DNA from: a virus | Length of the DNA stretch: 64,000 bases | IMG/VR virus record: IMGVR_UViG_3300045988_176682 | Direction: 5' to 3' (one strand) | Part shown: one piece after another, positions 2,698-63,500 of the stretch | Layout: each line of letters opens with the position of its first letter | Position numbering within the stretch: the stretch's first letter is position 1 | The notes under the pieces: generated by a model | What the model saw: the letters and a program-made list of their open reading frames with translations, nothing else | What the model was told of the DNA's origin: nothing | Databases searched by the model: none | Position numbers and translations under genes: made by a program

Positions 2698-3142
2698 CTT
2701 CCATTAAGTCCCTTTTTACATAAACGTTATCGATAACAACGTCTCTATGCCTTAAAACCGATGTAGTGGTATTGTACCAAACGGATTTATAAAGTTCAAT
2801 AGAGGATTTTCTTCCATAAAAATGGTGCAGGATTTTTCCATCATCCACATAAATAGCAGCATGGCAGGGATAGAGAGATTTTACCGCCATTAAAATAACA
2901 TCGCCATACTGAAATTCTTGAGGTCTGATATTATCTATGGTATGAAAACCCTCTCTCGGAAAATATTCTGCGTAAAGATTCATATCGGCATTCCACCAGA
3001 AATCAGGCCGAGCATAATTAGTTAATTCAATACCGAAAGCAACCCTGTAAAAATCTCTAATTAAAGAGTAACAATCATTAGTCCCATGGAGAAAATCCTT
3101 GCCGGTAAAAAGGGATAATTCTTTCTCTGTCAATTTTTTCAT
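2651..3142 (-). CDS. NlpC/P60 cysteine-peptidase tail protein (equivalent of C-terminal half of lambda gpK)
   Basis: GTNDCYSLIRDFY (catalytic Cys) and HAAIYVDDGKILHH (His) align with lambda K GVTDCYTLFRDAY...NHAAIYCGDGELLHH. Confidence 0.8.
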   Translation of the reverse strand: MKKLTEKELSLFTGKDFLHGTNDCYSLIRDFYRVAFGIELTNYARPDFWWNADMNLYAEYFPREGFHTIDNIRPQEFQYGDVILMAVKSLYPCHAAIYVDDGKILHHFYGRKSSIELYKSVWYNTTTSVLRHRDVVIDNVYVKRDLMEDERIKHQLLLLRQRS

Positions 3143-3146
3143 ATCT

Positions 3147-3632
3147 TTATCCTAATGTTACAGAAGGAAAGTCTGGTTGAATAAACAGTCTGGCCGGAAC
3201 GTTAAAGTTATTGCCGTCCATCGGATTTCTTAATTCTAACTCTACATAATTTTTAGTAATTGATTTTACATTCCAGATAATCCATTTTAATCTTTGATAA
3301 ATTTCTCTGTTATTATCTAAATCTTGTCTCAATACACGATACCGGTATAGTGTAGCTTTTTCAATATCCCCGCTGATAAATAAACTGGAAAAAATACCTT
3401 CCGGGTTTACTACCCTTAATGTCGGCCGGGATAATTTTTCGGAGTCAAGCTCATGTCCTGATAACTCAATGGGATAACCTTCCCACAAATAACCAGCCCA
3501 CTCTATATCATCTCCGGCTTTCAACCTTAAAGTTGTTTTATTATATAAATCAATTTGAAATAAATCGACATAGGCATCGGCCTCTAATTTAAGGTTTTCA
3601 ATTTTATGGGTATCTGGAATAATTGTAGCCAT
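3147..3632 (-). CDS. minor tail protein, lambda gpL-like (N-terminal domain only)
   Basis: YVDLFQIDLYNKTTLRL...WAGYLWEGYPIELSGHELDSEKLSRPTLRVVNPEGIF resembles lambda L VVLWEIDLTEVGGERYFF...WQGRQYQPYPIQGSGFELNGKGTSTRPTLTVSNLYGM. Lacks the Cys-rich C-terminus. Gene order supports it. Confidence 0.65.
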   Translation of the reverse strand: MATIIPDTHKIENLKLEADAYVDLFQIDLYNKTTLRLKAGDDIEWAGYLWEGYPIELSGHELDSEKLSRPTLRVVNPEGIFSSLFISGDIEKATLYRYRVLRQDLDNNREIYQRLKWIIWNVKSITKNYVELELRNPMDGNNFNVPARLFIQPDFPSVTLG

Positions 3633-4045
3633 TAAAATACCTCTTTTAATTTTACTGTAAAATCAGCACACACTCCATTTCCTCCAACTAGCCTTTTTGG
3701 TAGGGGAAGAGGCTCCTTAAACCTTACTTTCAGTTCGCCTTCGGTAGGATGATGATATAAGAAGCTTTTGTGGGTTAAATGTTTTTTATAAAACTCGCGT
3801 AAAGCGCCCATATTATTAATAGATTTATTGGTCTCAAAATCCAATACTGTTCGGTTTCCTTCTTCTTTAGTGTACCATTTATAACCGGTAAAGGTGAGAG
3901 AAAATTCCCTCAGTACAGGAAAATTTCCATCTGTGGCAAAAGAATATCCCCCGCCAAAATCTACGGAAAAACCTTGGCTGACAAATGTTCCTTCTTCACT
4001 ATGGAGCATAAAATCATCAAAATTATCAAGTGTCGTATCTGCCAA
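3632..4045 (-). CDS. minor tail protein, lambda gpM-like
   Basis: VDFGGGYSFATDGNFPVLREFSLTFTG...KSFLYHHPTEGELKVRF resembles lambda M VRFGDGYSQRAPAGLNANLKTYSVTLS...KSFLWTPPYEWRQIKVTC. Sits immediately downstream of the tape measure gene. Confidence 0.65.
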   Translation of the reverse strand: MADTTLDNFDDFMLHSEEGTFVSQGFSVDFGGGYSFATDGNFPVLREFSLTFTGYKWYTKEEGNRTVLDFETNKSINNMGALREFYKKHLTHKSFLYHHPTEGELKVRFKEPLPLPKRLVGGNGVCADFTVKLKEVF

Positions 4046-4046
4046 C

Positions 4047-7000
4047 TTAGCCTCCCATACTTACCTGTTTAATTAATTGTTTAATAGTGCCGTTTGTTTT
4101 TATATCCCGACTAACGGTAGCAATAATATTATCCGGGTCTTCTTGAGGAACTTGGTCAGGTGTAACAACCCATATATTCATTGTAGAATTTTTAGTTCCC
4201 GAACTCTTTTCTCCAGTCTGAGAAAGTCCCTCAGAAGTAGAAGTGAGAAAATCAGTGTTTCCGGCATTAAGATTAGAAAGAAAATCAGTACCGACAGCTT
4301 CAACGGCAGATTTTCTCATAACATATTCTCCGGGCATTAATCTGGCATTAATCGAATCCCGGTTGGCTATTCCACCTTTTACAAGACCTCCATGAGACGC
4401 AGTGAAGAATCCGCCGGAACCGGTAACTCCTCCGGATTCAACAACTCCTCCTCCAAATAAAGACCCTATCCCGCTAGAAACAAGACCAAGTAAACCTGTA
4501 GGGTTTCCAGAGCTGTCATCCCCACCGAATATTCTTGATAAGAATAATTTAGCGGTTTCACTATAGAATGTTTGTTCCATAGCTCTTAAAATTCCGTTGC
4601 ACATATCCCTAAAGGCATCTCCGGTCTTTTCGGTACCGTTAATAGCTACGTCAAAAAAGTTTGTAAGAGCCCCTTCGGCTTCATTTAATCCAGTGTACCA
4701 AGTCTGGCCAAAAAGCTCTCCAGTAGCGAAATTAAGGCCACTGTTGAAATAAGTATTCTGGCTCGCATATGAGTCTCTGGCATTTGTGAAAGAGTTTATA
4801 AATGCCTGATTAATATTTTCGTTAGACTCTAACTTATTAATGGCATCAATAGTACCTTGTAACTCCAACATGGTACCTTCAAGTTCTTTAATCTGTACAT
4901 CAAGGTCATTAATGGTTGAGGTATATTTTTCTTCTGCCCGAGCTGCTTCCTCGTAATTTTTCCTAGCTTCTTTTATCTGGTCAGCAGTAGCAGTTGTACT
5001 ATTTCTAAGATTATTGAAAACTCTTTCAGTTTCTTCTAAATTTTGTTTTATCTCTCGATAATCTAAACTTTTAATCAGAGAAGTTCTACGTTCATTTAAG
5101 TCCTTCCTGGTTGTAAATGCTAAGTTATAACGAGTTTGATAATCTCTTCTTTGGTCTAATTCTATACGACTTCTTCCAGCGCTTTCTTCAATAGAAGCTC
5201 CCATCAGACCATATCCGGTAACTAAACCCTCCCGATACCGATATCTGTTTTCTAAGTCAGCAATAGCTTTTTCATACTTTTTATTAATATCATCGATAGA
5301 AGAATTAAGAGCCTTGAAATAAGCATTTTGAGACTCGGCATTTCTGTCGAAAGTAGATTTTACTTTTTCTACCTCGGACTTAATTTGAGCTCTTTTATTT
5401 TTATAAGAAGCATTTAAATTAGCCAAATCTTCGTCAAAAGTAATTGCTTTTACAATATTTTTTCGACCCTCTTCTAAATCAGCTTTTTGTTTTAAGAAAT
5501 CAAGCTCTGCTTCTCTCTCTAATCTTTTCTGTTCAGCATCCAAAGAAGATAGAGGCTTACTGGTTAAGGACCGGATACCTTCCTTAAACTTTCGGTCACT
5601 TTCTCTCTGAGCCTTCTTAGCTTCCTGTTTTATAACTTCAGAATTAATATTTGAAAGTTCTGCTACAAACTCAACATAATTAGAGGTAATTTCCTGATAA
5701 ATTTTACTCGTTTTATCAGTTAAAGCCTGTTTTACTTTGTCGAGATTACCTTTTGTATAAGTATTAGCCAGAGACTGAATATCAGTTCCCATGAATTTAA
5801 CCATATCTTCGATACTACCCTTTTGAAGATAATTCAAACGAGTCTCGGCAGCCATGGTTAATTCAGCTACTCCAGCAGAAATTTCTGCGCTCGAATAGTT
5901 ACCACTGGTTGATAGGTCGGTTAACTTAGCTCTCAAAGCTGTCAAATCACTGGAAGTAACTTTCATTACTCCTTGAATTACAGCATCGAAAGATTTGTCC
6001 AACATATTTTGGAGGTTCTTCGAATTTTCCTGTTCGACAGTTTTCTGCTGGTCTAAGAACTTAGTGATTAAATCTCTTGTTTCCTCGGTTAAGCCAGAAG
6101 TAGAATCAGAAAGAAGTTTCATTAAATCATCAAGAAATTCTTGTCCTCTTTTCTCATATTGAGATTCAAGGGCAGCAATATAACTAGCGGATTCTTTTTC
6201 AGTAGCAGCATATCTTGAAGCTCTATAAGATTCAATACCTGCACGCCCTGCTTTTACTCCATAAGAGGCAATATTACCATAAGGGTTTAATCTCTCAAGA
6301 GTAGATGCAACATCAATTCCACTCAAAAATTTTGTTACTGGGGACCGAGATTCTTCTTGTTGAACCCTTAAGCTGTTAGCAGTATTTTTATCAATAATTC
6401 CGTACTGTTGAAGAATACTCACTTGCTTATTTTTATCCTCAACAGATAATCTATCCTGCATAACTCTTGCAGCCTCTCTGGTAAGGTCTCTGGCTGCCTT
6501 TGACGAACCTCTTGCGGCTTCGGCATTAAAATTAGCAAGTCTTATCTGAGCTTCTAATAATCTGTCAGCAAGTTCCTCAAAAGACTTAATGGGCTCCTTC
6601 ATAATATCCGCAATTTGAGGGAATCTTGTAATAATCATATTAACAAATTTATTTAACTCTTTTTGTCCTTCCGGACCAGAAAACTTTTCTCTCTGTACAA
6701 AAGCCCTTGAGATAACATTAGAAAAAGCATCATAACTTTCTTGGGCCTTATTTATCTCTCCTTGTTTATCTTCCATAATAGAGGCAGTTTTTTCATAACT
6801 TCTGCCAACAGAATCTAAACTTTTATACAGACTATAAGCAGCAGCAGCCACAGCACCAATAGCGGCAGCAGCTCCAACATAAGCTAAAAGAGACCCTCCA
6901 GCAAAAGCTGCGGCTAATCCTCCGGCAGCTGTTTTAGCATCTAAAAGACTCTTTCCCAGAACAATAATTTGCCCAATGGTCTTGGCTACTAAACCGACCG

Positions 7001-36107: not shown

Positions 36108-36443
36108 ATGATTAATGCTAAAGAAGAATTAGAAAAAAAGCTAAAAGAAATTGGAAAGACAATTAAAGATATTTATTGGATTCAGATTTATACGGAAGAC
36201 TGGGTAAAAAATTCTTTAAGAAAAAAATCCTTATTGGATTCTGATATTTCTCAGGAAATAGAATCTAATTGGGATAATCTAGATTTCACCTATGATAATG
36301 GTTTTGGGGGCCAGGAGCTTTATGGAACAGTTATCTTCAAAGATGAATCTTGGCTAGAGAGGGGTGAATATGATGGGTCTGAATGGTGGAACTATAAGAA
36401 ATTACCTGAATATAAAAAAGGAGCTTATTTAGATGAAATTTGA
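36108..36443 (+). CDS. hypothetical protein
   Basis: 111 aa ORF. Confidence 0.4.
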   Translation: MINAKEELEKKLKEIGKTIKDIYWIQIYTEDWVKNSLRKKSLLDSDISQEIESNWDNLDFTYDNGFGGQELYGTVIFKDESWLERGEYDGSEWWNYKKLPEYKKGAYLDEI

Positions 36444-36648
36444 AGAAGTAATGCCATATATGCGAGAAGGTAAAAAGGTTATCCGAAAATCTCTTTCACA
36501 TCCTATCTTCATATCTGATTATACAAATAGCTTTGGGGAGACTTACAAGGCCTTTTGTTTTCATGGTGATAAATATATAAATTATTATGAAATTACTCAG
36601 AATGATTTATTTGCGGAAGATTGGGAAGTAATTGGTAGGGTTGATTAG
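36433..36648 (+). CDS. small phage protein of the MKFEEalkamreGKkv..W family (I recall this as DUF2829), paralog 1
   Basis: MKFEEVMPYMREGKKVIRK...DWEVIG. Confidence 0.5.
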   Translation: MKFEEVMPYMREGKKVIRKSLSHPIFISDYTNSFGETYKAFCFHGDKYINYYEITQNDLFAEDWEVIGRVD

Positions 36649-36707: not shown

Positions 36708-37118
36708 ATGACTTTAAAGAAAGAATGGAAGAATAAAACTCTTGATACAGATAAAATGTATTGGGTTTTATTTAAGGATTGTAAATCTCCGGAGGTTAGA
36801 AAACTAAACCAAAACTGTCAATTTATCGATAAATATGGTTTTCCCATTAGTCCAGTAAGGATTATAGACGTTTTGGATGTTTGCGATTATGACCAGTTTG
36901 TTGAGCTTAAAGAAAAGTTAAAACAACTAGAAGAAACCGCCGCAAAAGCAACAGAAATCGCTCAGGCTGCCAGTAAGGACAACGAACATTTGCGAGAATT
37001 GCTTAGGGAAAGTAGAGGTAGTGTATGGCTTGAACGTGAAAACGACGGCTCCTTGGGAAATACCGTATGGGATAGATTAACTAAACTTTTAGACGAGATA
37101 GATGAGGCATTGAAATGA
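36708..37118 (+). CDS. hypothetical protein, paralog family ...LDEIDEALK (member 1)
   Basis: 136 aa. N-terminal W..L..YW domain, coiled coil, and C-terminal LLDEIDEALK. Confidence 0.45.
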   Translation: MTLKKEWKNKTLDTDKMYWVLFKDCKSPEVRKLNQNCQFIDKYGFPISPVRIIDVLDVCDYDQFVELKEKLKQLEETAAKATEIAQAASKDNEHLRELLRESRGSVWLERENDGSLGNTVWDRLTKLLDEIDEALK

Positions 37119-37330
37119 AAAACCTGTTACACGCTTTTGCTCCTTTAATGGCTATTACTGCCGTTTATGACGGCTTGTATGAGGGTAATTTATCACCCAA
37201 GGTAGTTGATACTCCACAAAGTGAAGAAAGTATTGCAGCGTACAAAAAAGCTGCTGAGGAAAAGAGAAAACGTAGAGCAGAAAAAAGGAAGGAAAAAAGC
37301 AATGAAAAGAGTAATGAATTTAACAGATAA
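37115..37330 (+). CDS. hypothetical basic protein
   Basis: 71 aa, Lys/Arg/Glu-rich C-terminus. Confidence 0.3.
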   Translation: MKNLLHAFAPLMAITAVYDGLYEGNLSPKVVDTPQSEESIAAYKKAAEEKRKRRAEKRKEKSNEKSNEFNR

Positions 37331-37712
37331 TTGGAAACATGGAACACTCCCTCCAGGTTACTATTGGGTTAGAGATAAAGACGGAAAGGTTAGAATTAGT
37401 AGATTAACCAGATGGGTTAGTTCTCGTAACGAATTTCTCGAATTGCATTTTGAGGGAGAGGAATATATTGAAGAAGTTTTATTATCTTGTAATTATGACA
37501 AGATTGATAATATGAAAAATACCATAAGTTTTCTTGAGAGAAGAATCACAGAAGTAAAGGAGGAGAATAAACAACTCCAGCAGCTGCTAGAAAAATGTAG
37601 ACCATATGTTGACAAATATTTTGAGGAACAAACCATAGCAGAAAATTATGACAAATTAAGATGGCAAGAACCTTTGCAAATTTTAGAAGAACTTGATGAG
37701 GCGCTGAAATGA
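37302..37712 (+). CDS. hypothetical protein, paralog family ...LEELDEALK (member 2)
   Basis: 136 aa from the ATG at 37302. Same length and architecture as 36708..37118, ending ILEELDEALK. Confidence 0.45.
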   Translation: MKRVMNLTDNWKHGTLPPGYYWVRDKDGKVRISRLTRWVSSRNEFLELHFEGEEYIEEVLLSCNYDKIDNMKNTISFLERRITEVKEENKQLQQLLEKCRPYVDKYFEEQTIAENYDKLRWQEPLQILEELDEALK

Positions 37713-37852
37713 CTTTTACTATTCCAGTTTGGGCGATGTGGACAATCGGTTTTATTGTCGGCATCCCGGCTCTAGTTTTTATCCTGTTTTGTGCTTGGGT
37801 TGGATATGCCTTTCTAAAAGGTGTTATTGAAAATGGAGGATTTTATAAATGA
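37709..37852 (+). CDS. small hydrophobic membrane peptide (47 aa)
   Basis: MTFTIPVWAMWTIGFIVGIPALVFILFCAWVGYAF... Below the ORF-track cutoff. Confidence 0.3.
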   Translation: MTFTIPVWAMWTIGFIVGIPALVFILFCAWVGYAFLKGVIENGGFYK

Positions 37853-38070
37853 ATGCAGAGAAAATAGAAGTCGGCGATGTGTGGAAAAATAAATATGATG
37901 GTTCTTTATGTCATATTATTTCTGTTAAAAAGGATGAGGTTACCTATTTTTGTAAAAAAGATATGGAAATATGGATAAGTAGTATTCCTCACTTTTGGTT
38001 TTTAGGGTGGTGTAAATTAGTGGGTAAAAGCAAAGTTGGAATTGAAGATTTGTTTAAAATGGAGGAATGA
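37849..38070 (+). CDS. hypothetical protein, EVGDVW...GKSK..I.DLF family (paralog 1)
   Basis: 73 aa. Shares its N- and C-terminal blocks and the 3' junction ...GGAATGATGAAA with 38909..39121. Confidence 0.45.
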   Translation: MNAEKIEVGDVWKNKYDGSLCHIISVKKDEVTYFCKKDMEIWISSIPHFWFLGWCKLVGKSKVGIEDLFKMEE

Positions 38071-38501
38071 TGAAATTAAAATATCTCTATAAAGGAACGA
38101 CCTTAAGAAAATACTGTAAAGAACATAACCTTAATTATGACACAGTTGTAAAAAGAATAAAAAACAAAAAGATGTCTATTGAACAAGCTATGACCACACC
38201 TAAAATGAATAAGAGTTATTTATTGTGTTCAGATGGTGTCCCTTTAATTAAGAAATGTAATACTATTTCTGAATATAGAGCTTGTCTCTGGAGAATTAAA
38301 AACTATAACAAAACAGTAGATGAAAGTTTAACCCCTATCAATAAAGGTAGAGCAAGAGCCATTCATTTTCATAATGGCAAATCCTTTCGTGAGCTGTGTG
38401 AAACATATCAACAATACAGAAGAGCTATCCAAAGATATAGAAATGGACACTCTAAAAAAGTTTCGTTGTTTGGTAATAAATGGGATTTAATCTATGGCTA
38501 A
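38067..38501 (+). CDS. tandem NUMOD-like HTH DNA-binding protein (homing-endonuclease-type DNA-binding modules, no nuclease domain)
   Basis: Two repeats of Y(K/R)G.T(L/F)R..C..(H/Y)...Y.....R.....S.E.A: LRKYCKEHNLNYDTVVKRIKNKKMSIEQAM and FRELCETYQQYRRAIQRYRNGHS. Confidence 0.4.
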   Translation: MMKLKYLYKGTTLRKYCKEHNLNYDTVVKRIKNKKMSIEQAMTTPKMNKSYLLCSDGVPLIKKCNTISEYRACLWRIKNYNKTVDESLTPINKGRARAIHFHNGKSFRELCETYQQYRRAIQRYRNGHSKKVSLFGNKWDLIYG

Positions 38502-38916
38502 ATTAATAAAATCAAAACAAAGGGTTAAGGATTTCGGTGAAGTGTTTACGCCTATCTGGGTTGTAAATGAAATGCTTGACGAATTAGAAAAAGAATCAGA
38601 TGCTTTTTCTGATATTGGTAAAACTTTTCTCGAGCCAACTTGTGGCACAGGCAATTTTGTTGTTGAAATATATAGACGTAAGCTAAACCGATGCAAAAAT
38701 GACCGAGCAAAAGCCGAAATAGCTTTAAGAAGCCTTTGGTGTATAGAGCTCTTAGAGGACAATATGATGGAGTGTAGACAACGAGTTAAAGATATTTTCG
38801 CTTACTATGGTTGGACAGATTTGCCTTTTGATGAGGTGTTTGAAAAACAGTTCTTAATAGGGGATTCATTGAAAATTATGAAGCAATGGGAAGAAGAGGA
38901 GAAGGAGAATGACTGA
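38494..38916 (+). CDS. truncated gamma-class N6-adenine DNA methyltransferase (motifs X/I only; no NPPY catalytic motif)
   Basis: FGEVFTPIWVVNEML ... FLEPTCGTGNFVVEI matches the TaqI/Eco57I-type FxGxxxTP ... LEPxCGxGxF. The ORF ends about 80 aa later without (N/D)PP(Y/F). Confidence 0.5.
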   Translation: MAKLIKSKQRVKDFGEVFTPIWVVNEMLDELEKESDAFSDIGKTFLEPTCGTGNFVVEIYRRKLNRCKNDRAKAEIALRSLWCIELLEDNMMECRQRVKDIFAYYGWTDLPFDEVFEKQFLIGDSLKIMKQWEEEEKEND

Positions 38917-39121
38917 AAAACGTACGCCAGAAGTTGGCGATGTGTGGCAGAGAAAATTGCTTTTTGACCGCGTACATATTGTTCAAGTAAGTAAAAACGC
39001 TGTGAGATATCAAATAGGAAAAATCAAATTCAAAACAATTCCCAAGGATTTTTTTCTAGATGCCTATAAATATCTCGGCAAGAGCAAAGCCAGTATTAAA
39101 GATTTGTTTGAGGTGGAATGA
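38909..39121 (+). CDS. hypothetical protein, EVGDVW...GKSK..I.DLF family (paralog 2)
   Basis: 70 aa paralog of 37849..38070. Confidence 0.45.
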   Translation: MTEKRTPEVGDVWQRKLLFDRVHIVQVSKNAVRYQIGKIKFKTIPKDFFLDAYKYLGKSKASIKDLFEVE

Positions 39122-39683: not shown

Positions 39684-39857
39684 ATGAAATTTGAAGAAGC
39701 TTTGAAAGCTATGCGTGAAGGTAAAACGGTTAAACGTAAAGAATGGAGTAAGACCGAGTTTAATAGAAGAAAATATCTTTGTCTGGAAAAATACCATTGC
39801 GAAACATTGTGGACAGAGGATTTTCTAGCAGATGATTGGGAGGTTGTAGATGAGTAA
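39684..39857 (+). CDS. small phage protein of the MKFEEalkamreGKtv.R..W family, paralog 2
   Basis: MKFEEALKAMREGKTVKRKEWSK...DDWEVVDE, 57 aa. Below the ORF-track cutoff. Confidence 0.45.
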   Translation: MKFEEALKAMREGKTVKRKEWSKTEFNRRKYLCLEKYHCETLWTEDFLADDWEVVDE

Positions 39858-43086: not shown

Positions 43087-43884
43087 ATGGTTTTAATTTA
43101 TGATGTTAATAACTGGATAAGAGTTAAACTGTCAACCGACGGAGACCAGTTAACCATTAACAATTTCTGGTCTGAGGTTTTATACAACTCTTCTAAAGGA
43201 GAGGTTCAAATTTTTGTCTCTGATGGTTTTAATTCGAGAAAAAAGAGAAAAGAAATCTATCCAGAGTATAAAGCAAAAAGAAAGCCTGCCGATGCCTCTA
43301 TTTATGATGGTATCAATTTCTTTAAGAACCTTTTGCGTCATGCTCCAAAAAATGTTTTTTATGTAGAAGTCCCGGAAATGGAAGCAGATGATATTATAGC
43401 TCATCTGGTAAGATACCGAAATAATTACTACATTGGAAAAGATATTCATATTATTTCAACCGATAAAGATTTAACCCAGCTTTTAGTTTATCCCGGAGTA
43501 ACTACTCTGGCTACTCCTCCGGTAGAACCTAGATTTGTTAGGCTTTATAAAACTTTAGTTGGGGATAATTCAGACAATATTCCGGGAGTGCCGGGAATAG
43601 GGAAGTCTTCTTGGGAGAATATCCCGGAAGAAGTAAAAAAAGAACTTAATATGATGTTGGCCTCCGGCGGGATGTTGACCGAACATTTGGCAGATGAATT
43701 AGAAAAATGTTTCAAGCCAAAGCAACTGGAAAATTTTTATGAAGCTTATTATAATGGTAGTCTGCACATGTTCTTTAAGATTGTAGATTTTATAGATTAT
43801 CCATTTAATCCGTCAATATTGAAGACAGGAGACGGAGACTTAAACTTTGTTAACAAGCAACTGAATGAGTTATTTATATTATGA
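43087..43884 (+). CDS. 5'-3' exonuclease / flap endonuclease (FEN, PIN + H3TH)
   Basis: MVLIYDVNNWIR, EVPEMEADDII, IISTDKDLTQL, LVGDNSDNIPGVPGIGKSSWE. ATG at 43087, with AGGAGA 7 nt upstream. Confidence 0.75.
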   Translation: MVLIYDVNNWIRVKLSTDGDQLTINNFWSEVLYNSSKGEVQIFVSDGFNSRKKRKEIYPEYKAKRKPADASIYDGINFFKNLLRHAPKNVFYVEVPEMEADDIIAHLVRYRNNYYIGKDIHIISTDKDLTQLLVYPGVTTLATPPVEPRFVRLYKTLVGDNSDNIPGVPGIGKSSWENIPEEVKKELNMMLASGGMLTEHLADELEKCFKPKQLENFYEAYYNGSLHMFFKIVDFIDYPFNPSILKTGDGDLNFVNKQLNELFIL

Positions 43885-45509
43885 GAAACAATGCTTGGCT
43901 TAGTTCTGGAGGAGATGAAGCGAGTGATGAAGTAATCACTCCCAGATACGTTGTGGAACCTATTGTCAAATATCTTAAGGCTAAAAATTTTAAGGTTGTT
44001 TGGTGTCCGTTTGATACGGTAGTGTCCCAATATGTTCGCGTTCTTTATAAGGAAGGGTTTGATGTCAGGTTTGGACACCGAGACATAGGGCTTGACTTTT
44101 TCAAATATGAATGTCCGGAAGCAGATGTCATTGTTTCAAATCCGCCGTTCAGTTGTTATAGCGATGATACAGAGGTATTTACTAAAAGAGGATGGATTAG
44201 ATTTCCGAATATATTACCAACTGATGAGATTTTATCCGTAAACAATAAAAAAGAAATTAGTTGGGATAAAATTTCGAGAGTTATAAAAAAAGAGGTTAAT
44301 GAGGATTTATATCATTTTAAAAATAAAAACATGGATTTATTAGTTACCTCTGACCACAGGATGTTTGCCTACAATAAATATTCTAATGAGTTATGTATTG
44401 GTAAAGATGGGGATTTATTAAGAGCTTCCGAAATTGGAAGTAAACACTATTTTCCTAAAAATGGATATACTTGGAAAGGAGAGATTAACAACGATTATTT
44501 AGTTCTCCCACATACAAAAAATCCCCCTAGGAGTAAAGTTAGCTTTTATCCTGAACTAAAGATACCTCTAATTGATTGGCTTCCTTTTTTCGGATTATGG
44601 TTGGCTGATGGATTCGTTTCTACATATAAAGGAACCGGACATGAATATACTGTGGGGATAAAACAAGGAGAATCTAGATGGAGAGAGGTAGAGAATATCT
44701 TAAATAAGTTACCTTTTAAATATTCTAAATATATAAATAAAATATACCCCAGCGATAGGGAAAGAAAAGCTGACTATGCTATATATCAAAAACAATTATG
44801 GGATTATATGAACCAATTTGGTAAATCTCAAAATAAATTTATTCCTTCTTGGATAAAAAATCTTCCTGTGAGGTATTTAAAGCTTCTTATTTATGGCTAT
44901 ACTTTAGGAGATAGTTTTAGACATAAAGGAATAAATTCAATAACTACTTCTATTCATTATGGGTCAGTTTCTAAACAGTTGCTAGAAGATATTCAAGAGA
45001 TATTATTAAAATTAGGAAATATAACTAATATTTCTCACCAGATTTTAAATAATGGTAATGATTATTATCGCTTAATCTTGAATAAAGATAGTTGCAGTAA
45101 CAGAGCTATGTATATACGTAAAAATCCTCAAAATAAGGAACCCTATAATGGGTTAGTATATTGTTTAACTCTAAAAGAGAATAGTATTTTTTTAGTGAGA
45201 AGAAACAATAAAATAATATTTTGCGGTAATTGTAAAGACCAAGTATTGGAAAGACTTTATAAATTAGATAAACCCTTTATGGTTTTATTTCCTGTTCAAG
45301 TATTACAGGGAAAGAAAAGAACCAAGTTGTTTATGAAATATGGGTTGGAGTATCTTGGATTTGATTCCCGTCCTTGTTTTTATACCAAAAATGACTTATC
45401 GTCTATAAAAACGGGAAATCATTTTGCCAGCGGATATTATTGCCGGAATGTTCTTCCGGAGAAATTAATTTTTGAAGAATTAAAATTAATACAGGAGCCT
45501 TTTATATGA
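43881..45509 (+). CDS. phage Dam-like N6-adenine DNA methyltransferase interrupted by an intein (exteins ~91 + 92 aa)
   Basis: N-extein DEVITPRYVV ... VIVSNPPFS (motif IV NPPF), then C-extein KDQVLERLYKLDKPF.... Extein total of ~183 aa fits the small phage Dam family. Confidence 0.6.
   Translation: MRNNAWLSSGGDEASDEVITPRYVVEPIVKYLKAKNFKVVWCPFDTVVSQYVRVLYKEGFDVRFGHRDIGLDFFKYECPEADVIVSNPPFSCYSDDTEVFTKRGWIRFPNILPTDEILSVNNKKEISWDKISRVIKKEVNEDLYHFKNKNMDLLVTSDHRMFAYNKYSNELCIGKDGDLLRASEIGSKHYFPKNGYTWKGEINNDYLVLPHTKNPPRSKVSFYPELKIPLIDWLPFFGLWLADGFVSTYKGTGHEYTVGIKQGESRWREVENILNKLPFKYSKYINKIYPSDRERKADYAIYQKQLWDYMNQFGKSQNKFIPSWIKNLPVRYLKLLIYGYTLGDSFRHKGINSITTSIHYGSVSKQLLEDIQEILLKLGNITNISHQILNNGNDYYRLILNKDSCSNRAMYIRKNPQNKEPYNGLVYCLTLKENSIFLVRRNNKIIFCGNCKDQVLERLYKLDKPFMVLFPVQVLQGKKRTKLFMKYGLEYLGFDSRPCFYTKNDLSSIKTGNHFASGYYCRNVLPEKLIFEELKLIQEPFI
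44154..45230 (+). mobile_element. intein (359 aa) with LAGLIDADG homing endonuclease
   Basis: Begins CYSDDTEVF (block A). Block B is LLVTSDHRMF. Two LAGLIDADG motifs (LPFFGLWLADGFVS and LLIYGYTLGDSF). C-terminal VYCLTLKENSIFLVRRNNKIIFCGN followed by a +1 Cys. Inserted directly after NPPFS. Confidence 0.7.
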
Positions 45510-60604: not shown

Positions 60605-61552
60605 ATGTTAGACAGCGGTTTTTCATTCATCGGAGATACCCATATAGGAAGAAGATTCAGAACCGGAGTCCCATTGAATAGACTGGGAGAGAGGGAAGAA
60701 TTAATTTATAATCTATTTACGGAGAAATTATATGACAACAATCATAATATTCACACCATTGTACATCTTGGCGATTTATTTGACCGTCCAACTGTAGGAT
60801 ATGACGACCTATTTAGGACTTTTAATATAATAAAAGGTGCCGCTGAACAGTATCCTTTTAGAAATTATTACTTCATTCAGGGCAATCATGACATGAGCCG
60901 TAACCGAGAAATGGTTACTGCGTTTGGTATCCTTAAAACTTTGCTAAGAGATACCGAGAATGTAATATTTATTGACGATGAAGTATTGATAGATGGGAAC
61001 CTTGCCTTTGTTCCTTATACTAAGAATGAAGAGTTTATTAAACATTATAACTTTCTTCCTGATTATAAAAATATGACCCTCTTCGGACATTTTGACGAGC
61101 CTTTTCCCTATTATATTTTTAAGGATTTCCTAAATGTTGTTACCGGCCATATCCATATTCCCAGAGAAGAAAATAATATAATTGTTACCGGCAGTATTAT
61201 TCCGATGACTTTTGGGGAAGACCCCGCTGGTAAATTGTATAGAACCTTAACCTTAAGTGAATTTGAGGCTGTTCAAAATAATCCCTATGATAAAGAAGGA
61301 GAATGGAGAGACTATTGCTATCGGGTTATACTTAGGGATGGAGAAACTCTTCCAGAGAATACGGGATGTCGGCAATTAATTTCAGTCAAGAAAGATGATT
61401 TGGAAAACTTACCGGAAAACTTGTTAGACTCTTTAGAGGATTTTTCTAACTTTGATATTGATTCCCTATTAAAAAAAGCTTTAGAAGAGACAGGTTTATT
61501 CGATGAAATCTATAAAAGATACCTTGAATTGAGGGCGGAATTAAATGTTTAA
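60605..61552 (+). CDS. SbcD/Mre11-like nuclease (calcineurin-like phosphoesterase)
   Basis: GDTHIGRRF, HLGDLFD, GNHDMS, GHIHIP. Confidence 0.75.
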   Translation: MLDSGFSFIGDTHIGRRFRTGVPLNRLGEREELIYNLFTEKLYDNNHNIHTIVHLGDLFDRPTVGYDDLFRTFNIIKGAAEQYPFRNYYFIQGNHDMSRNREMVTAFGILKTLLRDTENVIFIDDEVLIDGNLAFVPYTKNEEFIKHYNFLPDYKNMTLFGHFDEPFPYYIFKDFLNVVTGHIHIPREENNIIVTGSIIPMTFGEDPAGKLYRTLTLSEFEAVQNNPYDKEGEWRDYCYRVILRDGETLPENTGCRQLISVKKDDLENLPENLLDSLEDFSNFDIDSLLKKALEETGLFDEIYKRYLELRAELNV

Positions 61553-63500
61553 AAGAATCACGATTGATAACGGAATCAAACATAACGGAGTTACGTTTGA
61601 TTTCAATACCGGTATTACTGCCATTACCGGCCCCAATGGTTGCGGAAAGTCCTTACTGGCAGAATATATGGGTTTTGCTTTATTTGGCGTAAAAGCTCTC
61701 CGACTTCCTGCGGAAAAATATAAAGGTCTTTCTGTAAAAGCCGAAGTAACTATTAAAGATAAAAATTATATCATCAGCCGGAAGATTACCAACTGTGAAA
61801 TAAAGAGAGATGATACTGTTATCTGTACCGGAACAAAGCCATGCAATCTGAAAATAATTGAACTGCTTGGTTATAATTACTCTGTCTATAAGATGGGAAA
61901 CTATGCAGCACAATTCCAGATAACGGAGTTTGGAGAACTTCCTCCGTCGGAGAGAAAGAAAGCTGTCGACCAAGTTCTTGGCCTAAGCATTATTGATACC
62001 CTCATTAAATATTCTAATGACGAGGGAAACCGTTACCTTGCAGAAGTAACCGGTATGACGAACGTTTTACAGAAACCGGAAGAACCAACCAAGCCCGAGT
62101 TCTTTGACGATGCCGATATTATTGCCAATCAGTTAAATGCTATCAAAGTAATTATCGACCGGAAACGCCTCCTCAAACAACTTTACAGCTCTCTTGGAAA
62201 TATGCCGGCCCCCGTAAAACCAATAAGACCAGAAGGGGTAGCAGAAAATTTAACTGCGGGACATATTAAAGATATACTTTCCCGTAAAAAACTTCTTGAG
62301 TATCAAGCTGATGAATTTCTCCGTCAGGTAAGACCTCAGTATAGTTTGGAACAACTGGAAGAGATGGAGGCTAAATGGCCTGCTTATGAGGCATATGTAA
62401 GTTATCTCGATAAGCTCGAGATGATACCGAAAGTAAAGCCGGAAATTTCTCTTAGTGAGGCTTTATCTGGTAGAGCAATGTGGGATGCTTATAATAGTTG
62501 GAAAAAGGCTCAGGAAGAGCTTATTTCGTGCCCTAAGTGTGGTACTAAATTTACTAAAGCCGGTTCGTCAGTTAATGAGGAAGATATTCCTCAATGTCCA
62601 AAAAAGACCGAGAAATATTACATTGACCAAGTAGACCTTAACCACATTTGGGAAAATACAACGATTCCGACTCCGGTAGAACCTGCCGAAAGGCCAGAAC
62701 TTTTCATGTATGAAATCCAAAATCAAAAATCTCTTATTTTCAAATGGGGAGAGAGGGAAAATAAACTTCCGGCTATTCAGAAAGAACTTGAAGAATATAA
62801 AGATATTACAGACCTTATGTTCGCTCAGGTACAAGCTTATGAATTGGCAGTTGTCGATTATGAAAACAAGAAAAAGGCTTGGGAAGATTATCTGGATAAA
62901 GCTCATAAATATAAAACAGAGTTAGACCAATTAGAGGGTCTCGGAGACGTTGAAAAGGTATATGAAGAATTAGATAAAAAGGCAGAGGCCATTAAACTGT
63001 TTAATATTCAAATGAAAGAATATTCTTCACAGCTCGAGACTTATCTTACATTAAAAAATCAAATCGAAGAAATTAAAGCCAAAGGTGATAATTACAAACT
63101 CGCCTCTACCAAATTAAAGGAGGTAAAAACCGAAATTAAGCAGGTTATACTCCCGAGTTTGGCTAAATTGGCTTCAAAACTGCTATCGGAAATGTCAGAG
63201 GGACTTTATAGCTCTGTCGAGATTGATGAAGATTTCAACATCACCATCAATGGCCTGGAGATAGCAGGATACTCAGGGTCAGAGAAAGCTATGGCCAACT
63301 TGGCGATTCGTATCGCTCTTGGTCAGGTATTGACCCACAAATCTTTCAATGTCTTTATTGGGGATGAAATAGATGATTCAATGCGCTCAGAAAGAGCTCA
63401 GGCAACCGCAGATTGCCTGAAAAAACTTTCTAAGCATATTAACCAGATTATTCTTATCTCTCACAGAGATATTGAAGCAGACAATTATATTAATTTATAG
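61545..63500 (+). CDS. SbcC/Rad50-like ATPase
   Basis: Walker A GPNGCGKS. Long coiled coil with central CPKCGT...CP zinc hook-like CxxC. Signature SGSEKAMANLAIRIAL. Walker B/D-loop FIGDEIDD. Confidence 0.75.
   Translation: MFKRITIDNGIKHNGVTFDFNTGITAITGPNGCGKSLLAEYMGFALFGVKALRLPAEKYKGLSVKAEVTIKDKNYIISRKITNCEIKRDDTVICTGTKPCNLKIIELLGYNYSVYKMGNYAAQFQITEFGELPPSERKKAVDQVLGLSIIDTLIKYSNDEGNRYLAEVTGMTNVLQKPEEPTKPEFFDDADIIANQLNAIKVIIDRKRLLKQLYSSLGNMPAPVKPIRPEGVAENLTAGHIKDILSRKKLLEYQADEFLRQVRPQYSLEQLEEMEAKWPAYEAYVSYLDKLEMIPKVKPEISLSEALSGRAMWDAYNSWKKAQEELISCPKCGTKFTKAGSSVNEEDIPQCPKKTEKYYIDQVDLNHIWENTTIPTPVEPAERPELFMYEIQNQKSLIFKWGERENKLPAIQKELEEYKDITDLMFAQVQAYELAVVDYENKKKAWEDYLDKAHKYKTELDQLEGLGDVEKVYEELDKKAEAIKLFNIQMKEYSSQLETYLTLKNQIEEIKAKGDNYKLASTKLKEVKTEIKQVILPSLAKLASKLLSEMSEGLYSSVEIDEDFNITINGLEIAGYSGSEKAMANLAIRIALGQVLTHKSFNVFIGDEIDDSMRSERAQATADCLKKLSKHINQIILISHRDIEADNYINL

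Follow-up and report, generated by a model that had tools for sequence, protein, structure and literature searches.

A phage gene for the putative cofactor-binding half of an Eco57I-type adenine methyltransferase, a free-standing member of a very large protein family

M.AquI and M.EcoHK31I are natural split C5-cytosine DNA methyltransferases (MTases), made of two polypeptides (PMC3404938). In them the break comes after motif VIII, or else at motif IX, and the two parts are encoded jointly. Here we describe a gene of another kind in the virus record IMGVR_UViG_3300045988_176682, a stretch of 64,000 nucleotides that we call the window and to whose positions all coordinates without a locus label refer. 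In contrast to M.AquI and M.EcoHK31I, its product belongs to the N6-adenine gamma class, the break lies between motifs III and IV, and the phage has one part only. The gene (38494..38916, plus strand) encodes a protein of 140 aa that corresponds to the β1–β3 half of the Eco57I-type gamma-class N6-adenine MTase fold: a stand-alone S-adenosylmethionine (SAM)-binding module, named here the N-module. With the Eco57I/TaqI/MmeI-type gamma-class MTases (Pfam PF07669, PF02384, PF20473) it shares the order of motifs X, I, II and III and a half-Rossmann fold, but it stops before motif IV and lacks NPPY, motifs V–VIII and a target-recognition domain (TRD). This protein cannot methylate alone. Sequence comparison shows nonetheless that the open reading frame (ORF) is a functional, free-standing module of a very large and ancient family that purifying selection strongly constrains.

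Residues 14–28 of the protein, FGEVFTPIWVVNEML, contain motif X (F14-G-E16-V-F-T19-P20; 38533..38553, plus strand), and residues 45–57, FLEPTCGTGNFVV, contain motif I, the SAM-binding loop (F45-L-E47-P48-T-C-G51-T-G53-N-F55; 38626..38658, plus strand); they align to motifs X and I of HsdM. Strand β2 (38740..38763, plus strand; strand 81–85 in the predicted model) brings the acidic residue of motif II (I84-E85), a position that is D or E throughout the family alignment, together with the family-invariant pair D89-N90. Motif III (L-I-G-D124-S-L; residues 121–126) lies on strand β3 (38854..38871, plus strand; model strand 120–122). All residues invariant in the family (E16, T19, E47, P48, G51, G53, F55, R62, K63, D89 and N90) are found in the window protein. 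The ORF stops 16 residues past the GD of motif III, about 20 residues short of the expected NPPY position, and the protein closes with a C-terminal helix and an acidic tail. Full-length relatives run on into FDVIIGNPPY, with NPPY some 20–40 residues past motif III in P0198 and P0248. Downstream of the N-module ORF, no NPPY-type motif, (N/D)PP(Y/F/W), occurs in any frame. An earlier note on this DNA had described the ORF as only the SAM-binding half of a gamma-class adenine MTase, with neither the catalytic motif IV nor a TRD, and this description holds.

The same note had suggested a profile search, and MTase similarity was indeed found. The N-module protein matches PHROG 21201 at 4.6e-17 (positions 14–102 of 156) and PHROG 4376 at 8e-14; a profile search of PDB sequences aligned it with HsdM (3ufb) at 2e-7. 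The Pfam matches are limited to the N-terminus and fall below the gathering scores (N6_Mtase, 15.8 versus 20.4 bits; MmeI_Mtase, 16.3 versus 27). Identity reaches 36–46% with the N-terminal ~100–145 residues of the full-length proteins P0182, P0248, P0187, P0198, P0151 and P0205. The MTase similarity is far above chance and confined to the N-terminal half. Of the features of a gamma-class MTase, the protein has motifs X and I in the gamma order, without motif IV, a complete domain with TRD or a Pfam score above threshold; by its length and its match along the whole of the short profile, it belongs to the short stand-alone family of PHROG 21201 and 4376. To this family also belong KpV477_028, Ah1 gp103, P-SSM2 Q58MW7 and cyanophage ACG-2014f gp051, under automatic names such as ‘DNA methyltransferase’ or ‘DNA methylase adenine-specific domain-containing protein’.

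AlphaFold2 modelled the 140-aa protein from a 45-sequence alignment with a predicted local distance difference test (pLDDT) score of 92. The model has strands at 45–48, 81–85 and 120–122 with helices between them, and a C-terminal helix at 125–139. Against the PDB, Foldseek returned solely N-terminal halves of gamma-class adenine MTases: CamA, HsdM (3ufb), DrdV, LlaGI/LlaBIII and MmeI. These alignments cover about 16% of the targets (TMt ~0.16), with three strands compared to the seven of a complete catalytic domain. In a viral structure library, the same truncated fold is present in uncharacterised proteins of Klebsiella phage KpV477 (153 aa), Prochlorococcus phage P-SSM2 (132 aa) and Bodo saltans virus (154 aa).

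A word-indexed search yielded 1516 homologs, the best 120 of which are nearly all 114–164 aa long. An exhaustive profile search over clusters at 50% identity retrieved 7544 cluster representatives, 3145 of them at E<1e-10 and 389 at E<1e-30; the best 150 of these 7544 are nearly all 106–290 aa long. Among 272 distinct short sequences, conservation is 100% for E16 and N90, 99% for T19, P48, G51, G53 and D89, 98% for R62 and K63, 97% for F55, 96% for E47 and 89% for P20, while D124 is kept in 81% and replaced by N in another 18%. The ratio of non-synonymous to synonymous substitution rates (dN/dS) of the N-module gene comes to 0.038 in comparison with the nearest strain and to 0.086 for two relatives that are 80% identical. 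The identical protein recurs in at least 16 contigs, named ‘hypothetical protein’. In an approximate neighbour-joining tree, the stand-alone modules fall into at least two deep clades, and full-length, paired and split forms branch in between. The large family, the near-invariant SAM-contact positions, the low dN/dS and the exact recurrence exclude both decay and sequencing error. The earlier note’s option of a decayed MTase thus falls with family size, uniform length and 96–100% conservation of SAM contacts, and a frameshift introduced by sequencing with the lack of a downstream NPPY and the same ORF in many assemblies. One short-family member, the metagenomic protein P0131 (469 aa), is interrupted within motif I by an intein (TFLEPSC | intein | CGNGNFLVEI).

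We sampled 80 viral and 80 bacterial loci of relatives and classified them with home-made profiles. The stand-alone type, which includes the clade of the window, comprises 56 viral loci with modules of 134–198 aa. None of the 56 has an Eco57I-type catalytic half within 5 kb, and neighbour clustering found no conserved neighbour, no family being present in more than 6 of these loci. The stand-alone pattern recurs in a prophage of a bacterial chromosome, in two further contigs with Pfam-annotated neighbours, in a T4-like cyanophage and in a 23 kb fecal phage contig; in the last, no motif IV ORF exists anywhere.

Other relatives come in two pieces. In locus L048 (5001–6669) the module is followed by a gene (5650–6669) that begins at motif IV, with MQFDVVIGNPPYQ, and has neither motif X nor motif I. 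The permuted order, C-terminal half first and module second, is found in L052 (3132–4510; C-terminal half 3132–4055), in Aeromonas phage Ah1 (L002; gp104, gp103) and in Klebsiella phage KpV477 (L003; 030–028), and since a frameshift cannot yield a permuted order, these two-piece enzymes are not frameshift artefacts. KpV477_030 has an additional GIY-YIG-like N-terminus. In L041 (5001–7119), one module precedes two different motif-IV-first catalytic/TRD genes. Wherever catalytic partners occur, they are immediately adjacent to the module. Motif content and gene order show that natural two-piece Eco57I-type adenine MTases exist, broken between motifs III and IV; M.AquI and M.EcoHK31I are a precedent for such an MTase fold divided between assembling polypeptides, as in L048, L052 and Ah1 gp104/gp103. 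We found no description in the literature of N6-adenine MTases split between motifs III and IV, permuted orders included. The window differs from these loci: the adjacent motif-IV-first TRD gene of L048, L052, L041 and Ah1 is absent here, and the catalytic/TRD gene that stands directly upstream of the module in the T4-like Aeromonas and Klebsiella phages has no counterpart.

The dominant bacterial architecture is a widespread three-gene system, present in at least 64 loci by strict criteria, in many bacterial phyla and in some viral contigs (L125 6001–11058; L171 5911–10928; L031, L106 and L133 among others). Thermophilibacter gallinarum DSM 107455 and Cryobacterium gelidum Hz16 are two of its carriers. 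First comes a module extended at its C-terminus, then an Eco57I-type MTase (510–560 aa) and last a T5orf172-helicase (830–980 aa); in a variant, the latter two are fused. Pfam and PADLOC identify the set as the single-chain model PDLC03626 REase_MTase_IIG in split form, and we did not find it described in the literature with its small SAM-binding subunit. The family hidden Markov model matches the three-gene small subunits at 1e-33 to 1e-42. They are 215–275 aa in total, about 70 aa of which form the extension. A post-motif III extension with an FAEW or KF-x-DW segment is seen in L125, L171, L114 and L131; L114 and L131 have short, window-like modules, each ending in a KF(R/K)DWKTGE tail, placed between the MTase and the helicase. 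The window protein has in common with these subunits a homologous SAM-binding module made as a separate small protein, but it ends in ...GDSLKIMKQWEEEEKEND without any such extension, and its genome lacks the accompanying MTase and T5orf172-helicase genes.

Single-chain T5orf172-helicase-MTase enzymes, P0151 (1470 aa) and P0205 (1492 aa), have a pair of SAM-binding halves in tandem and a single NPPY; the first half is divergent (QIFTP, and DPYMKSG in P0205) and the canonical one stands directly before NPPY. The MTases of three-gene systems have only the divergent type of motif I (DPxxKSG), and in that of L001 the motif II acid is changed to alanine. The canonical module is thus probably the working SAM-binding half, which in three-gene systems comes as a subunit of its own. 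We considered whether the separate T5orf172-helicase proteins contain an N-module-like segment and rejected this, as the signal came from the duplicated N-half of P0151 and P0205. Altogether, related modules work as separate polypeptides with Eco57I-type catalytic halves and as the first gene of a restriction-like system.

The window belongs to a phage genome. Structural genes occupy the minus strand to ~20 kb; beyond it, a long plus-strand array encodes a DEAD/SNF2 helicase, a 5′–3′ exonuclease and a family A DNA polymerase. Megablast gave no match to the studied region among annotated phages and no close relative was found; the polymerase is ~37% identical to polymerases of ~78–85 kb siphoviruses. 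As the window was possibly not the whole genome, we walked off both its ends via the terminal genes and tiled the pieces. The window, ~1.3 kb and 8.2 kb close a ~73.4 kb circle, in agreement with contigs of 73.39–73.44 kb. The remaining 9.4 kb outside the window encode a GapR-like protein, an endolysin and tail genes, with no module, catalytic half, motif IV ORF or T5orf172-helicase. With a catalytic/TRD-half profile, no Eco57I-type C-terminal half appeared in the six frames of the window (best E 0.32). No T5orf172-helicase gene is present in the whole ~73.4 kb genome, nor is any ORF that starts at motif IV or lacks everything before it. The earlier note had proposed looking for the missing C-terminal half elsewhere in the genome; for the closed circle, the profile search refutes its presence. 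Near the end of the window (60605–63500, plus strand), an SbcCD-like pair is made up of a protein of Metallophos type (315 aa) and one of SMC_N/AAA_23 type (651 aa), after which the gene of the GapR-like DNA-binding protein lies just outside (L098 12573–12815).

We propose, with a probability of roughly 40%, that the N-module is an anti-restriction subunit mimic, that is, a trans-acting SAM-binding module aimed at host restriction systems. The window protein would bind SAM, as suggested by the conserved motifs X and I–III, and would dock onto a host Eco57I-type MTase or restriction complex via the face at which the module otherwise meets the catalytic half (strand β4). Once docked, it could act as a subunit mimic, blocking or uncoupling restriction, and its gene would then count as an accessory gene of early, anti-restriction type. 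As the phage encodes no Eco57I-type enzyme of its own, one of the host is the most likely target, and action as a mimic is suggested by the phage copy lacking the extension found in all system-embedded subunits. An anti-defence role also fits by association, since the gene is one of several small accessory genes between two Tad2-like (Thoeris anti-defence 2-like) genes. These encode 71 aa (36433..36648, plus strand; Pfam PF11195, 42.1 bits against a cut-off of 25) and 57 aa (39684..39857, plus strand; PF11195, 35.3 bits against 25), and are paralogs of each other (E=2e-9).

The options of a ‘decoy’ and of a ‘regulatory subunit’, both raised by the earlier note, stay viable and are sharpened by the existence of modules as separate restriction-like subunits. 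Catalytically inert MTase-like partners that act through an active relative are familiar from DNMT3L with DNMT3A and METTL14 with METTL3; DNMT3L and METTL14, however, lost SAM binding and kept most of the fold, whereas the module family kept SAM binding and lost the catalytic half. More tentatively, the minimal, extension-less SAM-binding subunit of the phage may be a dominant-negative mimic and stand for a new anti-restriction class, one that occupies the docking site of the cofactor-binding half in restriction-like systems whose catalytic half needs a separate SAM-binding half. Enzymes of the N6-adenine class are not known to be built in that way. As for the scope of such a class, gut siphoviruses, T4-like cyanophages and even giant viruses carry copies of this kind.

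Several points weigh against the proposal of a subunit mimic. The link of the protein to a host enzyme and the presence of the three-gene system in the hosts are presumed, SAM binding is deduced from motif conservation, and the Tad2-like context is guilt by association. The predicted three-strand half-sheet might homodimerise and act without an MTase partner. Stand-alone modules also occur in T4-like cyanophages and in a giant eukaryotic virus, where a role against the three-gene system is less obvious. Finally, the variant P0054 (164 aa; one 15.9 kb contig) results from a deletion that fuses the first ~100 residues of the upstream helix-turn-helix (HTH)-type protein to the last ~65 of the module, the two being joined where their sequences are briefly alike (RARA / RAKA). 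Neither of these genes survives in it, so the module gene is dispensable in at least some settings.

Among the alternatives, the best placed, though improbable, is a ligand binder that needs no partner: the module would bind SAM or a SAM derivative, for example the type III CRISPR signal SAM-AMP, and serve as a sponge or sensor that lowers the ligand for SAM-dependent defences. The SAM-contact motifs are near-invariant while the parts for catalysis and DNA recognition are all absent, and the module has no conserved neighbour. The fold is confidently predicted as a compact monomer, and two homologs of the known sponge Tad2 are encoded nearby. Against this, stoichiometric sequestration of bulk SAM is implausible at cellular SAM levels, and SAM-AMP sponges were not found in the literature. 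Relatives clearly act with protein partners, and the short family shows no sign of a remodelled pocket, because it conserves the same residues as the full-length enzymes.

It is distinctly unlikely that the module is a subunit of a split MTase encoded by the phage itself, with an M.EcoRI-like enzyme or an unrecognised one as partner, even if real two-piece and permuted enzymes exist among the relatives. The M.EcoRI-like MTase gene (43881..45509, plus strand), revealed by a motif scan, contains a LAGLIDADG intein (Pfam Intein_splicing, LAGLIDADG_3) and is the sole NPPF-bearing long ORF of the genome, with motifs EVITP...VWCPFD...DVIVSNPPFS. The intein is inserted directly after NPPFS, the catalytic motif IV. 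That the phage does encode this one MTase, with a motif I that has no glycine loop, speaks for the reading. The spliced extein of 183 aa, however, matches PHROG 799 at 4e-26 and EcoRI_methylase at 4e-5 and has its own motif X; for these reasons it is an independent enzyme, and the gene is ruled out as the missing half. The catalytic domain of the extein is small but complete, and M.EcoRI works autonomously as a monomer. The closed genome offers no Eco57I-type C-half or motif-IV-first ORF, partners elsewhere are always adjacent while here there is none, and the module and M.EcoRI-like families do not co-occur consistently in related contigs. Trans-splicing by a split intein was likewise ruled out, the 140-aa protein having a helix at its end and no room for an intein fragment. 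Inteins are frequent in this phage group, to judge from the portal-adjacent gene (652–861 aa) of the related phages L005–L009 (1–756) and L096 (1649–3607), which carries one, in some copies with a LAGLIDADG domain.

No less doubtful is a new enzyme built on a half-Rossmann homodimer, which would use SAM for a reaction other than DNA methylation, such as SAM cleavage. SAM-degrading phage enzymes are a known anti-restriction strategy, and strict conservation of the SAM pocket comes here with the family-specific invariant polar residues R10, R62, K63, D89 and N90. But full-length MTase relatives share these invariant residues, which therefore are not novel catalytic inventions, and the structural matches are solely N-halves of MTases.

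A SAM-responsive regulator, with the HTH protein as the DNA binder and the module as its SAM-sensing co-factor, is very improbable. The HTH-type protein (144 aa; 38067..38501, plus strand) overlaps the N-module gene by 8 nt, and the two genes are co-inherited in the closest strains. Its three internal repeats of ~45 aa (pairwise shuffle p 0.001–0.003), each modelled as a β-hairpin with helices (AlphaFold2 pLDDT 77), are putatively of DNA-binding type. The N-terminal one shows a possible resemblance to the DNA-binding tail of HNH homing endonucleases (PHROG 3377, positions 99–146 of 196, at 9.9e-6); the protein also matches PHROG 1065 at 4.9e-6, and Pfam HTH_28 only at 0.03. Pfam NUMOD gave no match in the 144-aa protein, and a fold search with its model gave no significant one. 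The tandem homing-endonuclease-type repeats claimed earlier are probably of HTH type and number three rather than two; the absence of a nuclease domain is borne out, none being found either in the protein itself or among its 5 homolog clusters. These 5 clusters are the whole HTH family, compared to thousands for the module. The HTH gene adjoins the module in 4 of the 56 stand-alone loci, in the closest strains only, and other lineages have an unrelated zinc-ribbon/HTH protein of 187–261 aa upstream of it. The HTH gene is a lineage-specific neighbour, not a family-wide partner.

The weakest explanation, a non-functional MTase remnant or frameshift artefact, can point to the protein keeping just the N-terminal ~130 residues of a domain that normally has at least 250 and to the one strain in which a deletion fuses module and HTH gene, but it is scarcely credible next to a dN/dS of 0.04–0.09, key residues 96–100% conserved across hundreds of divergent short homologs, uniform length, and an identical ORF in many assemblies with no NPPY downstream in any frame.

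The HTH and N-module genes are flanked by two small genes without a family match, one of 73 aa (37849..38070, plus strand) and one of 70 aa (38909..39121, plus strand), the latter overlapping the N-module gene by 8 nt. They are paralogs, as had been noticed earlier (44% identity, E=3e-15 by BLASTP), and the 3′ junction that they were said to share does comprise ~30 common nt; it consists, however, of the coding sequence for a conserved C-terminal KDLF-x-E and the coupled start ATGATGAAA. In a 99%-identical strain (L004 6416–6577), the copy of the 38909–39121 gene is cut to 53 aa by a frameshift, and the HTH gene is preceded by a different paralog of 77 aa. The flanking paralogs are an old pair, one of three paralog pairs within 4 kb. 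A further pair encodes proteins of 136 and 168 aa without family assignment (36708–37118 and 37206–37712, plus strand; 30% identity, E=3e-7), which have a coiled-coil middle and a common C-terminal ...DE(I/L)DEALK end. With paralog pairs so common in the region, the insertion or duplication of a cassette suggested by the earlier note finds no specific support. Neither does its two-gene operon of HTH and module: successive genes from ~37.7 to 39.7 kb overlap by 4–8 nt, and these two are links in that long chain. Promoter-like and terminator-like sites in the region are no commoner than in shuffles. In the related lineages L005–L009 and L096, the module and a homolog of the downstream 111-aa gene are kept, while the small paralogs are not.

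As one of the many members of a large family the gene itself is nothing unusual, but the family appears mis-annotated, uncharacterised and mechanistically suggestive. We found no functional study of the short PHROG 21201 / 4376 family and no description of its free-standing phage copies, and our literature searches on split phage MTases, SAM sponges and inactive MTases as anti-defence proteins gave nothing on it. Thousands of phage and prophage genes automatically annotated as ‘DNA methyltransferase’ contain the cofactor-binding half only and cannot methylate DNA. Such annotation inflates the counts of phage MTases, and recognition of these genes as a distinct, selected family changes it. If stand-alone phage copies do interfere with restriction-like systems of the three-gene type, they would represent a new and very common anti-restriction strategy, and they would help to work out how these enzymes are assembled and make use of SAM.

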